Below, one piece after another: positions 1,900 to 64,000 of a stretch of 64,000 nt of DNA. A program made the position numbers and the translations under genes. Position 1 is the stretch's first letter. The number at the start of each line of letters is the position of its first letter. Source of the DNA: a virus; the IMG/VR virus record IMGVR_UViG_3300045240_000051, positions 4,212 to 68,211 of that record; one strand, 5' to 3'. Below the pieces are notes generated by a model. That model made no database searches, was not told the origin of the DNA, and saw nothing but the letters and a program-made list of their open reading frames with translations.

Positions 1900-1926
1900 G
1901 TTTACCGTCACGGTAACGAGGGTTAA

Positions 1927-2286
1927 ATGCCGTTCAAGAAGGTAGGCTCTAATGAATATAGTTCTCCTTCTGGTCGTCATTTTAATGGCGCGCAGGTACG
2001 CCTCTACTACGCAAACGGGGGGAAATTCCCAGGAGAGAAAACTATGAGCAATAAAGGCTATATGGGTAAGAGCACGAGCTACGCGCAGGGGGGGCCTGTC
2101 CTTGGCAAAGTGAGCGAGTTCCTTAAGGCCGAAAACGAGTTTACGGACCCGGACGAAGGCGAGAAGGGCGACAGCGCCGACGAAGACCAGAAGTACGGTA
2201 AAACCGGCGCTGGTGCGGGTAAAGGCTTTACAAAGCCCCCCAAGGCTGCTGGCAAGTCATTGAAACCGGTCAAACCGCGTAGTTAA
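1927..2286 (+). CDS. Small K/G-rich protein with YxxGG motifs; possible second in-frame start at 2044
   Basis: ORF with YANGG and YAQGGPV motifs; AGGAG precedes the internal ATG at 2044. Confidence 0.6.
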   Translation: MPFKKVGSNEYSSPSGRHFNGAQVRLYYANGGKFPGEKTMSNKGYMGKSTSYAQGGPVLGKVSEFLKAENEFTDPDEGEKGDSADEDQKYGKTGAGAGKGFTKPPKAAGKSLKPVKPRS

Positions 2287-2364
2287 GTATCCTTATCCGC
2301 GGGGGGCGTGCCGAACATCCAGTCGGCCAAATAATCGTCGTCCCCAAAATTGCGGGTGCGCTTT

Positions 2365-60150: not shown

Positions 60151-60212
60151 ATCCTTAAGTATTTATAAGCCCCTTAGACCTAAGCTCGGCCTCGTATTTC
60201 AACGGGGAAATC

Positions 60213-62564
60213 ATGGCTTCGTCTATTCCGGTTTCGGTTAACTCCCCGCAAAGCAATATAGCGGCGCAAATTGCCCAATTGGCAGCAGCACTTGGGGTAC
60301 AGGTTTTCAACTGGGCCCAATCCCAGTATCAGGTGACTTCGAACGTCACTGACCAAGCTATAAATAATTTCTTAACCACAAGCCAGATCGGGCTGGGTGC
60401 TGCGCAACAGATGCTGTCGCAGTACGAGAATGTTACCGTCCCGGAGATTAACCAACTTGCCTCTATGGCTGCGGAGTATAACAGCCCGGCCCGTATCAGC
60501 CTTAACATGGGGGCTGCGGAGAGCGATGCTGCGCAGAAGGCCGATGCGGCCAGATTGAACGCGATCCAAAACCTTGAGTCCTATGGTGTCGATCCGTCCA
60601 GTGGTATGTATGCGAATTTGGAGCGCACGGCGAACACGCAAGCCGGTGCGGCGGAAGCTGGGGCTGGACAGCAAGCGCAGATCAATACAGCCAACACTGG
60701 TAGACAGCTTCTTGAACAGAGCATTTTGCAGGGCCAACAGCTTCCCGGTGACGTGGTGAATTCGTTGAACTCTGCGTTCCAGGGTATTTCCGGAGCGGAG
60801 AATTCTGCACTGGGCAGGCTTAACGCAGGTACGGCGGCGCAAGGTGCTGCCGCGCCGTATTTTCAGTCCGCCATAGCGTTGCGTTATCCACCCACTGGGC
60901 AAGCCAGCAATAGCGGTGCTGGCGGGGGTGGGGGCGGTGTCAGACAGCCACAACGCCAGCAGCCACAACAGCGGCCACAAGCGAATTACGGTGGCGGTGG
61001 AAGCAACCAATCCGGGCGTCCTGGTGGACAGGCACCTTCCAAAGGTTTCAAGATGATAAGTGGTGCTGGTCTTCCACAAGAAGATCAAAACCAAAATGAT
61101 CCGGCGTTTCAAGGGGGACAGTACGGCGCTGGAGCCATTGACCCGACTGGTGCGGGGTATAACGAGTATGGCCCTGCGGCGGCGTATGCTGGTGCCGGTC
61201 TTGGCAATGATCCGTTTGCTCAGCAGTTTGCCGGATGGAGCGGCGGTCAGACCAACCCGGTAACTAGTACGCAGTCTTCGCCTATGGCGCCCGGCGTTCC
61301 CATGTCGGATGCAAACTCGTATACAGGCGGAAGCTTTAATGCACCGGGTAGTACATTTGGTAGCGTGAACGCTACACCCGGATATAATACCCCCGCGCCG
61401 GTACAGAATGGTTCCACTAATGTGGATTTTGGTGCGCAGCAGGCTGGTGGTTTTAACACGTCCAGCCCCGACTGGCAGACCGGTGCCGGGTTCATAAATC
61501 CAGGCGGCAATCAGGGGGGGTTTGACCCTAACACGTTTAACGCAGGATTTGATCCGAGTGGGTTCAATCAAGGCGCATTTCAGCCCGGTGGCGGCGGTTG
61601 GGGTGTTGATACCAATGGAGGGTTTGACCCAGGCGGATTTCAGCCCGCTGCATTTGATCCCAATGCCGGTGACGGTAACTGGGGCGATCAATGGGCTGGC
61701 GCTGGTGATTGGGGAGGCGGCGGTGGTAGAGCAGGCGGTTACGCGGCTGATCCTAGTGCTGGCGGCGATTGGCAACCCCCCGGTGATTTCGGTGGCGCGT
61801 ATGCTCGTGGCGGACAAGTGCGAGGGTATGCGGGTGGCGGCGGTGCATACGGTAACACGGTGGATACGCCGGGCGGTGCCGCGGATTTCAGCATGCCGGA
61901 CTGGGGTAATGACGGTATGAATTGGGGTGGCGAGGGCAGTGGTGGTGGCTCTTGGCGATACAAGAACATGAACATGGGCTTGCCAAACTCCAGTAACCCG
62001 CAAGTCGGTGCAGACACTGTAAGCACTTGGGGTGGCCAGAACTATGGCGGGGCTACGTCCAACGAGCAATCTCAAAACTGGATGGACCAGTTAAACCAAG
62101 GATCACAAGACAATCAATCTAGCATGGGCGCGGCTGGAAATTTCCAACGGGGGTTTGGTTCGCCATCATCCCCACAAAGTGGTCCGGAAACTAACTCTTG
62201 GCAGAGCGGTCCACAGGCGGCGTCTTGGCAAGGCAACCTTGGATGGGGTGGAGGCTGGGCGCGTGGCGGCATGATACCTTCGCCGACGACTGGGGGTAAG
62301 GTTCCCATGCGAGCCAGTCCCAGCATGGGGAGACAGCAGGACGATGTTAAGGCGAACTTGAACGCGGGGGAGTTTGTCATTCCGCGGGATGTGGCTGCGT
62401 TCAAAGGGCAGGAGTTTTTCCATAAACTTATTGCCCAAGCGCGTAAGCACCGTGTAACAGGTGGCAAGCCGCCGTCTACTCCGGTTGGTGGGCAGCCATC
62501 GCGCCAGTTACCAGGACCGACGCGGTTCAATTCACGACCCATGCAGCGGCCACAGGGGCGATAA
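60213..62564 (+). CDS. G/Q/A-rich internal virion (ejection) protein
   Basis: GVDPSSG motif, low complexity, YARGG/WARGG and DDV.A.L..GEFVIP motifs. Confidence 0.7.
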   Translation: MASSIPVSVNSPQSNIAAQIAQLAAALGVQVFNWAQSQYQVTSNVTDQAINNFLTTSQIGLGAAQQMLSQYENVTVPEINQLASMAAEYNSPARISLNMGAAESDAAQKADAARLNAIQNLESYGVDPSSGMYANLERTANTQAGAAEAGAGQQAQINTANTGRQLLEQSILQGQQLPGDVVNSLNSAFQGISGAENSALGRLNAGTAAQGAAAPYFQSAIALRYPPTGQASNSGAGGGGGGVRQPQRQQPQQRPQANYGGGGSNQSGRPGGQAPSKGFKMISGAGLPQEDQNQNDPAFQGGQYGAGAIDPTGAGYNEYGPAAAYAGAGLGNDPFAQQFAGWSGGQTNPVTSTQSSPMAPGVPMSDANSYTGGSFNAPGSTFGSVNATPGYNTPAPVQNGSTNVDFGAQQAGGFNTSSPDWQTGAGFINPGGNQGGFDPNTFNAGFDPSGFNQGAFQPGGGGWGVDTNGGFDPGGFQPAAFDPNAGDGNWGDQWAGAGDWGGGGGRAGGYAADPSAGGDWQPPGDFGGAYARGGQVRGYAGGGGAYGNTVDTPGGAADFSMPDWGNDGMNWGGEGSGGGSWRYKNMNMGLPNSSNPQVGADTVSTWGGQNYGGATSNEQSQNWMDQLNQGSQDNQSSMGAAGNFQRGFGSPSSPQSGPETNSWQSGPQAASWQGNLGWGGGWARGGMIPSPTTGGKVPMRASPSMGRQQDDVKANLNAGEFVIPRDVAAFKGQEFFHKLIAQARKHRVTGGKPPSTPVGGQPSRQLPGPTRFNSRPMQRPQGR

Positions 62565-64000
62565 ATGACCTACGGATTTAACCAAGACAACAAGTTTTTA
62601 CAGAACGGCTTAATGGATATGCCGGTGTCTGGTAATGCGGCCACGGCGTTTCTTCCGCAAAACACTGGGGGTGTGCCGTCTTCCAGCGTGGCGCAGAACG
62701 GCTTCCTGCCGCCTGACCCCTCCAACATGGGTGGTGTGGGTGATAGTGGGGCTGGTATTCCCAGTCCGTTCACGGTGTCCGACGGCGGTAGTAACAGTGC
62801 CGCTACGTCTGGTGGATATGGCCAGAAGTATACCGGTCCTACCAATACTTCCGACGGCGTGGGGGGAAACAGCGGTGCGGCGTTTGGTGGGTATGGCAGT
62901 AACGCCAGTGGCGGGGATACCAGCGCGGGAGCGTTTGGCGGCACCATGGCGTTTGACGATGGCGGCATGATCCCTAGCCCAGGTGGCGCAGGTAACGGTG
63001 ACACTGGTACGGGTGGCTTGGATAACGCCGTGCAGTCGGTCATGCAGACACTACAGCAGGGGCGAGCGCGTAACGGCCTGCCGCCTACTCTTATGAGCGG
63101 GGAAGACGCTGCGGCGGGTTACGCCGATGGTGGCGATGTTACCGAAGGTGGCGATATGAGCGATCCGTCTGCGGGGGGTATTCCGGAACAGCCCGCGCAA
63201 AGTGGCGGGATGGCCGGACAGACCGCGGCGAAAATGGTTGGGTATCTCAAGGGTGCGGACGCGGTGTCCCCCGAAATTGCGCAGGCACTACAGCGGAGAA
63301 TTGACCCACAAGGACAGATGGACCCTAACGCACGCAACCTTATGGCTGTAGCCCAGGCTCCGGATCAGGCGAAATGGGGTTTGATGCAGCACATGCGCCA
63401 GAAGTATGACGCCACCAAGGCGTTCGCTGGGGCGGCTGCACAGGGCACACAAGGGAAACCGCCAGATATTAACGCATCCGCTCGTGCGGCCACACAAGCG
63501 TTTCAGAACTTACCGGACGGTAATGCAGTCCAGTTTCAACCGCACCCCCAAGGCGTGGCCGTGCATATCAAGTCTTTGGTTGGCGGGCGTAAGGGTTATG
63601 ATGAAGGTGGCGATGTTACCGCCACTGACGACGGAATAAGTGCGCCGGATCAAGCCCCGGATAACAGCGCACTGAAAAGCCTTGTACTGTCCATTCCGGA
63701 TTATGTGAAATATATTACTGGTAACGGTAGCCAGTATGACAATGTAATGGACAAAGGTATGGAGCAGAGCCTTAGCCCTTCGCAAAGTGGTGGTGCTGGG
63801 GACGAAGCCATTCCGGAAGAAGGCCCGCAGAACCCGCGCGGTGGTGTCATGCCGCGGTCTGGCAAGTATTACACCCCCACGCCTCTTTCTTCCACGCCGA
63901 AGGGCAGTACGCCTCGTGCTCCCGCTGGACCCACACAACAGGGCAAAGCCGAAGTTGGCGATGAAGCCGCTGCTGATACAGGCGCTACTCCTGGTGGACA
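62565..64000 (+). CDS. Internal virion protein, runs off the window end
   Basis: ATG follows the previous stop; frame reads MTYGFNQDNK... with FDDGG, YADGG and YDEGG; no stop codon seen. Confidence 0.7.
   Translation, partial: MTYGFNQDNKFLQNGLMDMPVSGNAATAFLPQNTGGVPSSSVAQNGFLPPDPSNMGGVGDSGAGIPSPFTVSDGGSNSAATSGGYGQKYTGPTNTSDGVGGNSGAAFGGYGSNASGGDTSAGAFGGTMAFDDGGMIPSPGGAGNGDTGTGGLDNAVQSVMQTLQQGRARNGLPPTLMSGEDAAAGYADGGDVTEGGDMSDPSAGGIPEQPAQSGGMAGQTAAKMVGYLKGADAVSPEIAQALQRRIDPQGQMDPNARNLMAVAQAPDQAKWGLMQHMRQKYDATKAFAGAAAQGTQGKPPDINASARAATQAFQNLPDGNAVQFQPHPQGVAVHIKSLVGGRKGYDEGGDVTATDDGISAPDQAPDNSALKSLVLSIPDYVKYITGNGSQYDNVMDKGMEQSLSPSQSGGAGDEAIPEEGPQNPRGGVMPRSGKYYTPTPLSSTPKGSTPRAPAGPTQQGKAEVGDEAAADTGATPGG

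Follow-up and report, generated by a model that had tools for sequence, protein, structure and literature searches.

An evenly spaced palindrome array in a phage family and the genes that accompany it

The Cluster O mycobacteriophages (Corndog and its relatives) carry a 17-bp dyad repeat, TGTTCGG-N3-CCGAACA, which is the closest published analogue of the element described here, that is, the palindrome TTACCG-N2–4-CGGTAA scattered through a 64,000-nucleotide stretch of phage DNA (hereafter the window; bases 4212–68211 of the 68,211-bp virus record IMGVR_UViG_3300045240_000051, which is rated complete and is designated G000 as a whole). Corndog has 34 dyad copies, of which 14 are intergenic, 10 lie near 5′ ends and 10 are in genes, and the repeat is absent from host genomes; the authors of the Cluster O report suggested a dimeric binding protein and held a transcriptional regulatory role unlikely, and the repeat has no known function (PMC4351075). 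The present array is alike in being a short inverted repeat with a 3-bp spacer and invariant arms, in numbering tens of copies in a genome of ~65–70 kb, in occupying intergenic, near-5′-end and deep in-gene sites at positions mostly shared among related phages, in its absence from the host genome (here, the genomes of relatives' hosts) and in a slight orientation bias of the spacer. It differs in that neither the sequence nor the phages nor the host phylum is related, in its N2–N4 spacers, lineage-specific spellings (CG, AG, TG and CT) and array-less sublineages, and in that its presence follows a defined gene set and even spacing was tested and found. A search of main texts in the literature gave no description of the array in this phage family: among the papers listed, those matching the two half-site sequences were coincidences of the primer type, for palindromes spread through phage genomes only the Cluster O paper was relevant, and none on Rhizobium RHph phages described the motif, PMC13611946 mentioning neither palindromes nor TM27. 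New relative to print are the lineage spellings, the in-place conservation across reading frames, the even spacing as tested, the complete lack of the array in certain sublineages and its association with four genes.

Stoperators of the L5 type are repressor-binding sites present in many copies across the genome, largely in short intergenic gaps, where they act on elongating RNA polymerase; each is an asymmetric site that binds a monomer and follows the direction of transcription. The present array likewise has many sites genome-wide, and relatives of this phage also occur as integrated prophages with an integrase nearby, but its sites are perfect palindromes in which only the spacer is biased, two thirds of them lie in genes, G000 is without a tyrosine integrase (no match to PF00589), and no repressor was identified. 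The stoperators of the Cluster A mycobacteriophages offer a working analogue of a genome-wide site array (PMC9283540). Plasmid RK2 offers another, in which the palindromic KorB operator OB is spread over a ~60-kb replicon, some copies at promoters and others far away, and OB sites are the loading sites for KorB, a ParB-family CTPase acting at a distance (PMC11790492). As on RK2, the palindromes here are scattered over the whole replicon, near and far from promoters, whereas the candidate 230-amino-acid (aa) protein introduced below has no recognised fold; ParB_N (PF02195) had no match in G000 at E ≤ 1, the control being found in 11 of 14 genomes. The CtrA box of the alphaproteobacteria has the consensus TTAA-N7-TTAA with a fixed N7. 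The original prediction, made from the letters of the window alone, likened the N3 form of the palindrome to this box, and the 4+7+4 geometry does hold, the letters TTA..TAA are common to both, and the relatives' hosts are alphaproteobacteria; however, the motif is not TTAA-N7-TTAA but an inverted repeat whose inner bases (CCG/CGG) are conserved; it has N6–N8 between TTAC and GTAA, is missing from close relatives as well as host DNA, and is not followed by the CtrA-like protein of the phage.

The array in the window

A pattern search of the window returned 19 perfect copies of TTACCG-N2–4-CGGTAA, 11 with an N3, seven with an N2 and one with an N4 spacer, which are exactly those, by position and spacer, that the original prediction had counted; the whole 68,211-bp record holds 20, the extra one lying outside the window. 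Dinucleotide-preserving shuffles (n = 100) gave a mean of 0.01 perfect copies, and the largest count was 1. One-mismatch copies in G000 number eight, namely the seven listed before, all of which are present, and an added one at 25313 with an N4 spacer. When half-sites were paired across G000, spacers of 2, 3 and 4 accounted for 7, 12 and 1 copies, and other combinations occurred only as single pairs, at spacers 7 and 29. Moreover, the TTACCG stem recurs 20 times in the genome, every other 6-bp stem with a 2–4-nt loop occurring at most four times. The sites, in window coordinates, are as follows.

1902–1916, perfect, N3: intergenic, 10 nt ahead of the gene start at 1927
4695–4709, perfect, N3: primase-helicase gene, aa 229; variant site at the equal place in the relative G006
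6514–6527, perfect, N2: intergenic, 1 nt past a stop and 15 nt ahead of a start
8523–8536, perfect, N2: helicase gene, aa 30; site at the equal place in G007 and G006
11583–11596, perfect, N2: intergenic, abutting the stop of the 11597 gene
13197–13211, perfect, N3: within an orphan open reading frame (ORF)
17456–17469, perfect, N2: within the DUF2201 gene
21234–21248, perfect, N3: 56 nt ahead of the 230-aa gene start, 3 nt after a leader motif
21980–21994, perfect, N3: within an orphan ORF
25607–25621, perfect, N3: intergenic, 16 nt ahead of the start at 25590
28269–28283, perfect, N3: within an orphan ORF
34464–34478, perfect, N3: 152 bp ahead of the portal start
41036–41049, perfect, N2: within a glycosyltransferase-like gene
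45765–45779, perfect, N3: small gene, aa 36; site at the equal place in G008
48615–48630, perfect, N4: intergenic, 13 nt ahead of the start at 48644
52041–52055, perfect, N3: within a tail-fibre-like gene
57901–57914, perfect, N2: within the gene of a 1125-aa virion protein
59022–59036, perfect, N3: within the gene of the 1125-aa virion protein
63510–63523, perfect, N2: within a late gene
10267–10280, one mismatch
12487–12500, one mismatch
13793–13807, one mismatch: DNA polymerase gene, aa 533; perfect sites at the equal place in G008 and G010
15189–15203, one mismatch
25313–25328, one mismatch, N4: the copy absent from the earlier list
29424–29437, one mismatch: 37 nt ahead of the CtrA-like gene
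39030–39044, one mismatch
57294–57308, one mismatch

Genes were called with a crude codon-usage model caller and cover 92% of the window (the deposited annotation was used for the Rhizobium phage RHph_TM27A); by these calls, 14 of the perfect sites lie within genes and five are intergenic. The enrichment survives codon-preserving shuffling. Thus, 1000 synonymous-codon shuffles within each gene, with intergenic DNA left unchanged, gave a mean of 5.23 perfect copies (maximum, 8), which is made up of the ~5 untouched intergenic copies and only ~0.2 in genes, where 14 were observed. Nine of the 14 in-gene sites are spanned by protein alignments to relatives, so that their coding context is real; of the other five, four lie in ORFs for which the 11 genomes under comparison hold no homologue, and one falls in a conserved gene but outside the aligned part. 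All in-gene N3 sites are in the frame ACC-Gnn-nCG-GTA (peptide xT-x-x-V), and four of the five in-gene N2 sites are in the frame TTA-CCG-nnC-GGT-AAy (peptide mostly LPxG(N/K)), in agreement with the VTxxV- and LPxG-type peptides read earlier. Collectively, the array is a selected, phage-specific and family-wide feature, which withstands both codon-aware and placement-aware nulls.

Placement was analysed with 192 sites from 19 sequences, of which 33% are intergenic as against 10% for random positions, both by the crude gene calls. Site centres fall 15–40 nt ahead of start codons in 37 of the 192 cases (19%, versus 3.9% expected) and 0–20 nt past stop codons in 30 (versus 3.3% expected). By its deposited annotation, the RHph_TM27A genome has 9.4% non-coding DNA, and 14 of its 46 sites lie entirely between genes; 12 of the 46 lie within −40 to +10 of a start (random mean 3.3 and maximum 11 in 2000 trials). 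No further conserved flank was found around 49 intergenic sites, hence no promoter-like element. The sites are also evenly spaced, as had been claimed. In G000 the coefficient of variation (CV) of the gaps is 0.48 versus 0.94 for random placement (P = 0.0002), and none of 4000 placements keeping the intergenic share reached the observed evenness. All seven arrays examined are more regular than random (CV 0.48–0.82 versus ~0.94; P = 0.002 for G006), with a Fisher-combined P of 4e-6 under the null that keeps the intergenic share, although these genomes are related, hold some positions in common and do not amount to seven independent tests. Site density in G000 is similar in the two arms, 1 per 2.9 kb in the replication arm and 1 per 4.2 kb in the late arm, and no gap between sites exceeds 6.6 kb.

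With respect to the direction of the genes, the N3 spacer shows a strand bias: over all N3 sites in 16 sequences, CCA occurs 22 times versus 5 for TGG, and CTA 9 times versus 2 for TAG; for CCA and TGG among intergenic sites only, the counts are 7 versus 1. The bias runs counter to the G-rich skew of the sense strand. A sense-oriented leader motif lies at 21252–21265 and 25655–25668 (minus strand), 3 nt and 33 nt upstream of palindromes, respectively, and at both places the order is leader motif, palindrome, ribosome-binding site and start.

The array across the phage family

G000 is a tailed phage with a minus-strand replication arm (primase-helicase, helicase, DNA polymerase and exonucleases) and a plus-strand late arm (portal, capsid and fibres), and with a small terminase operon on the opposite strand. 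A megablast search with 20 kb found no near DNA-level relative among named phages; the nearest are the Rhizobium phages RHph_TM27A, TM27B, TM29 and TM3_14A, with a portal identity of 57%. In IMG/VR, at least 571 portal-protein matches were confirmed (uncultured soil phages), of which 80 loci were analysed; a search with the DNA polymerase alone yielded just 4 loci. Among sequencing datasets, DNA of G000 itself was found only in two soil-metagenome contig sets, and no RNA dataset was listed for it. A scan of bacterial assemblies with the capsid protein revealed relatives in Bradyrhizobium isolates, a Pseudolabrys metagenome-assembled genome (MAG) and a Xanthobacteraceae MAG. The family is very large, comprising the at least 571 portal matches, cultured Rhizobium phages and Bradyrhizobium prophages, and it provides natural on/off and specificity variants of the array.

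Among the complete relatives (G001–G010), perfect TTACCG sites number 24 in G007, 22 in G008, 19 in G010 and 10 in G009, and no array sites were found in G001–G005. G006 has no TTACCG site but 20 copies of GTTAC-N6–8-GTAAC, mostly GTTACAG...CTGTAAC, and RHph_TM27A has 46 TTAC-N7/8-GTAA sites, 32 of them N8, with the consensus GTTACCTY..RAGGTAAC. By lineage, the spelling is TTACCG in most relatives, TTACAG in G006 and two IMG/VR loci (L020 and L054), TTACTG in three (L039, L143 and L144), and TTACCT with an N4 spacer in RHph_TM27A; the prophage-like relatives in the Bradyrhizobium, Pseudolabrys and Xanthobacteraceae assemblies also carry TTAC-N7/8-GTAA arrays. The invariant core of the family is TTAC-N7(8)-GTAA, the outer tetramers singled out in the original prediction, and the inner bases are lineage-specific and altered on both arms together. 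Most relatives are strictly N3, N2 being used also by G000 and G007, and 107 of 145 N3 sites have a Y-N-R centre, G007 favouring R-N-Y. The TTACCG spelling is common to phages ranging from 49% to 63% G+C.

Sites often stand at equal places in orthologous genes while the frame and peptide differ, which is the conservation that the earlier proposal had called for examining in relatives. A site lies 75–217 bp ahead of the portal gene in the window and in eight loci, including one from a TTACAG-type phage; the position of helicase aa 32 bears a site in G000, G007 and G006, and that of primase aa 230 in G000 and G006. At DNA polymerase aa 536 the site is perfect in G008 and G010 and has one mismatch in G000, and a polymerase loop at aa 305–309 holds a site in three different frames and spacers, read as LPDGN (G007), YRDGN (G009) and VTSGGN (RHph_TM27A). 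What is conserved is the nucleotide site, with spelling, spacer and frame changing, and the peptide is not kept.

G003 (with loci L095–L098), which has neither the motif nor the gene module described below, contains 76 TTACCG/CGGTAA hexamers versus 19–45 in other motif-free genomes and still has a single half-site where the site at helicase aa 32 lies in others, as though loss of the array were recent. Some motif-free relatives (L015 and L045) have repeated ACCGGT-N-ACCGGT, which resembles the codon periodicity of collagen-like PTG repeats rather than a palindrome array.

The motif is not a feature of host genomes, as judged on the hosts of relatives. In Bradyrhizobium sp. 139 (7.9 Mb), GTTAC-N8-GTAAC occurs eight times, all in two phage-holding contigs, versus 13 for a reversed-pattern control, and a second Bradyrhizobium genome (8.7 Mb) has two sites, one of them in a phage contig. 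The first 20 kb of a Bradyrhizobium contig, at the end away from the phage genes and taken as host, has no site, versus 6 and 13 sites per 20 kb in the phage parts of the assembly.

In two prophage relatives, a tyrosine integrase is encoded ~15 kb beyond the DUF2201 gene. In the Pseudolabrys MAG (contig C4, ~22–146 kb; L157, L158, L227 and L228), a related phage is present twice in identical form at a distance of 61.9 kb, and a single integrase gene lies past the second copy; the arrangement is either a tandem prophage or an assembly artefact. In a Bradyrhizobium isolate assembly (G011), a related phage is split over the ends of two contigs (C111, ~39–61 kb, and C166, 1–20 kb) and adjoins motif-free DNA taken as host, which suggests that at least some family members are temperate.

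Co-occurring genes and candidate reader proteins

A tblastn matrix of G000 proteins against 11 genomes pointed to a block beside the DNA polymerase gene, which was then examined with profile hidden Markov models. The genes concerned, with the exonuclease gene near the terminase genes, are the following.

15631–16305, minus strand: 224-aa protein (family A2), in six of seven motif-bearing complete genomes
16750–18054, minus strand: HExxH peptidase-like and VWA protein (DUF2201_N + DUF2201), N4 gp25-like; co-occurs with the motif
18389–18814, minus strand: 141-aa acidic protein (family A3); co-occurs with the motif
18811–19929, minus strand: AAA+ ATPase (PHROG 1297), N4 gp24-like; co-occurs with the motif
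20486–21178, minus strand: 230-aa basic, all-alpha orphan protein (family A5); co-occurs with the motif
32777–33880, minus strand: Mre11/SbcD-like calcineurin-type metallophosphoesterase (PHROG 284 exonuclease), between the TerS-like gene and TerL

In profile searches, four families, the ATPase, the DUF2201 protein, the 141-aa protein and the 230-aa protein, were present in each of the seven complete genomes that bear the motif and in none of the five that lack it, as well as in all three bacterial-assembly relatives examined, which carry 5–13 sites per 20 kb. Indeed, all 21 IMG/VR loci found via the DUF2201 protein carry 3–15 TTAC-N6–8-GTAA sites. With duplicate loci of the same contigs excluded (L136, L141, L142, L144, L146, L149 and L151), 23 gene-set-positive sequences have 330 such sites in 746 kb, or 4.42 per 10 kb (reversed-pattern control, 0.28), whereas the five complete relatives without the gene set have 7 in 327 kb, or 0.21 per 10 kb (control, 0.46). 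A portal tree was built from 50 rows (the window, RHph_TM27A and 48 of the 80 loci, excluding loci below 9 kb or with a portal match below 600 residues). On it, the motif state changes at least 6 times, 10 on the best tree, and for the 19 rows with a known gene-set state this state is concordant with the motif state in all 19. The Mre11-like exonuclease was found in the six motif-bearing genomes other than RHph_TM27A, where tblastn gave no match, and in none of the five motif-free ones.

The ATPase corresponds to PHROG 1297, and the DUF2201 protein to PHROG 1314 and to Pfam PF13203 and PF09967, with H99, E100 and H103 of its HExxH motif invariant; their homologues in phage JWDelta carry gp24- and gp25-like annotation; the N4 gp24/gp25 pair occurs in 455 named phage records. 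In the window, the gp24/gp25-like pair is grouped with three orphan genes beside the DNA polymerase gene (15631–21178, minus strand). A functional account of DUF2201 in phage was not found in the literature search. NCBIfam gave no match for the module proteins, nor did PHROGs for 10 small early ORFs; searches of the Protein Data Bank by sequence (profiles of the 230-aa and 224-aa families, and the ATPase) returned nothing usable, and Atlas look-ups placed the 224-aa protein in unnamed viral clusters only. For a phage RNA polymerase of the kind that reads DNA hairpins, as at N4-type promoters, PF00940 had no match in G000, but its control was found nowhere either, and none appeared among 49 ORFs scanned with PHROGs.

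Among the family-specific proteins, the 230-aa orphan is, by its sequence and distribution, the best candidate for a reader of the sites. Its family is uniformly basic (pI 8.45–9.64 over 41 members), the 141-aa family being acidic, and has 258 homologues in metagenomes, none of them annotated. AF2 models of the protein are all-helical, with a pLDDT of 90.5 for the whole chain and 87.1 for residues 1–172. A VIA match with Z 6.8 covers the C-terminal helical hairpin only, and rows for the TetR family, SlmA and RptR (Z 4.4–5.3) were rejected as within noise for helical proteins. No Pfam family recurred at E ≤ 5 over the 41 members. Atlas placed the protein in unnamed viral clusters with a DUF3102 feature score of 0.84, which is a lead only; PF11300 (DUF3102) had no match at E ≤ 10 in G000, G006, G007, G008 and G010. 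A site lies at most 200 nt upstream of the 230-aa gene in seven of 19 distinct contigs, including G000 and RHph_TM27A, and general autoregulation of the gene was rejected on this count.

The protein encoded at 29475–30074, which had been put forward earlier as a possible binder, has a weak winged-helix match (Trans_reg_C, 25.0 bits, below the cut-off of 26.2). Strong homologues of this CtrA-like protein are present in all ten complete relatives, including all five motif-free ones, and only marginal matches in the array-bearing RHph and prophage relatives; it is therefore not supported as the determinant of the array. With a short list of co-occurring genes, the cultured phage RHph_TM27A and a single candidate protein, an unexplained curiosity becomes a testable system.

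Possible roles of the array

We infer, at roughly even chances, that the palindromes are docking sites on double-stranded DNA (dsDNA) for a phage-encoded, symmetric and sequence-specific binder. Such a binder would read two half-sites (TTACCG in this phage) symmetrically on duplex DNA, and selection retains about one site every 3 kb, set in short intergenic gaps where possible and otherwise in tolerant coding stretches. The 230-aa protein may be this binder, possibly acting with the neighbouring ATPase, the peptidase-VWA protein and the 141-aa protein; the bound array could exert genome-wide silencing or impose transcriptional roadblocks, as with stoperators and KorB, or the sites could be loading sites of a DNA-organising machine. 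The genome-architecture signal envisaged in the original prediction stands in so far as the array is selected, genome-wide, evenly spaced and conserved, and its role may be stoperator-like, parS/matS-like or another. If the binder works with the MoxR–VWA pair, a role would be assigned to a gene pair conserved across N4-like phages. There is a small chance that the palindromes serve as the DNA address of a phage machine not recognised before, in which the 230-aa reader would recruit, or be remodelled by, the AAA+ ATPase and peptidase-VWA (gp24/gp25-like) pair at ~20 sites and thereby organise, silence or license the chromosome; this would give a first clue to the function of the widespread gp24/gp25 module and account for phage genome-wide dyad arrays in general.

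Several points weigh against the docking-site reading. The spacer ranges from N2 to N4 in G000 (7, 12 and 1 copies for N2, N3 and N4) and varies in G007 also, which is unusual for a rigid dimer, and a dsDNA model that is purely symmetric does not account for the strand bias of the N3 spacer. No DNA-binding fold or family was recognised in the 230-aa protein with Pfam, PHROGs or NCBIfam, and its confident AF2 models matched nothing in Foldseek at E ≤ 0.001, the highest VIA Z scores, 6.8 and 5.6, being within noise for helical proteins. CRP-7 and the N4-like JWDelta, which have the ATPase and DUF2201 pair, show no enriched palindrome in the first 50 kb of each, and the pair alone is therefore insufficient for the array. 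Furthermore, the link between genes and motif is phylogenetically structured, with two well-supported independent contrasts (five on the best tree), all in the same direction, which are too few for a sign test to reach significance; fast-evolving small genes, moreover, would escape the co-occurrence comparison.

It is unlikely that the sites act as short hairpins in single-stranded DNA (ssDNA) or RNA, the stem sequence being read by a factor, with roles in lagging-strand priming or loading, in RNA processing or stability, or as translational operators just upstream of ribosome-binding sites. A constant stem with a variable 2–4-nt loop would be natural for a hairpin, and one third of the sites are intergenic, with peaks 15–40 nt before starts and just past stops; in addition, the 3′ arm in RHph_TM27A often doubles as a Shine-Dalgarno sequence, and the N3 loop is biased in the sense orientation (CCA 22 versus TGG 5). 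However, hairpins of RNA or the lagging strand would be expected to favour G·T over A·C in the sense strand of imperfect sites, and no such preference was seen (18 versus 20 in TTACCG-type phages and 27 versus 26 in RHph_TM27A). At position 7, the RHph_TM27A sites have Y in the left arm and R in the right arm, with no Watson–Crick covariation (TG 14, CA 14, CG 7 and TA 7). When six sites were folded as ssDNA, five had marginal energies of −1.8 to −4.0 kcal/mol, no better than many shuffles, with one at −7.9; two N2 sites reached only −1.8 and −1.9 kcal/mol. Compensated double changes on both arms were not found among the 20 perfect and 8 single-mismatch copies of G000, no Rfam family was matched at the gathering score, and there is no extra conserved flank at the 49 intergenic sites; about two thirds of all sites lie within genes, many of them distant from any start. 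The lack of a G·T excess, the weak hairpins and the lack of compensated changes thus favour a duplex sequence reading of both half-sites, and the hairpin option entertained in the original prediction finds no support.

Known Chi-type signals are asymmetric, and the symmetry of the present sites is one reason why we consider it quite unlikely that they control a nuclease or recombination machine of this kind, marking phage DNA as self, starting or stopping processing by the phage Mre11-like exonuclease and the ATPase, or serving as programmed-nick sites. The even spacing, with at least one site per 6.6 kb, would suit a signal for protection or processing, host DNA lacks the sites, and the Mre11/SbcD-like exonuclease gene by TerL accompanies the motif in six motif-bearing genomes and none of the five motif-free ones; yet the densest array is that of RHph_TM27A, the very genome with no tblastn match to the exonuclease. 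A host protein, such as CtrA, another alphaproteobacterial regulator or a nucleoid protein, for which the phage has gathered binding sites, is very unlikely to explain the array. Its core, TTAC-N7-GTAA, is like the CtrA box TTAA-N7-TTAA in geometry, and the known or presumed hosts of relatives are alphaproteobacteria (Rhizobium, Bradyrhizobium, Pseudolabrys and Xanthobacteraceae), but the inner bases are fixed within each phage and different between close relatives, one spelling spans phages of 49% to 63% G+C, five close relatives have no site at all, presence follows phage genes, and there is no enrichment outside phage contigs in two Bradyrhizobium genomes. Least credible, and highly improbable, is that the repeats are recombination substrates for module shuffling, like PeSL elements or the Cluster O deletions, or selfish or neutral elements, with no dedicated binder. 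Five sites (13197, 21234, 21980, 28269 and 11583) do lie beside or inside genes without a homologue in the 11 genomes, and deletions between repeats are reported for Cluster O (PMC4351075); against this, positions inside conserved genes are kept across deep divergence and respelling, and both the even spacing and the concerted change of all sites in a genome would be unexpected for neutral repeats.

Apart from the array, the window encodes two adjacent nucleoside 2-deoxyribosyltransferase-like proteins (PHROG 355 and 12607; 11959–12794, minus strand), the distribution of which is independent of the motif and which hint at nucleotide or DNA-base metabolism.

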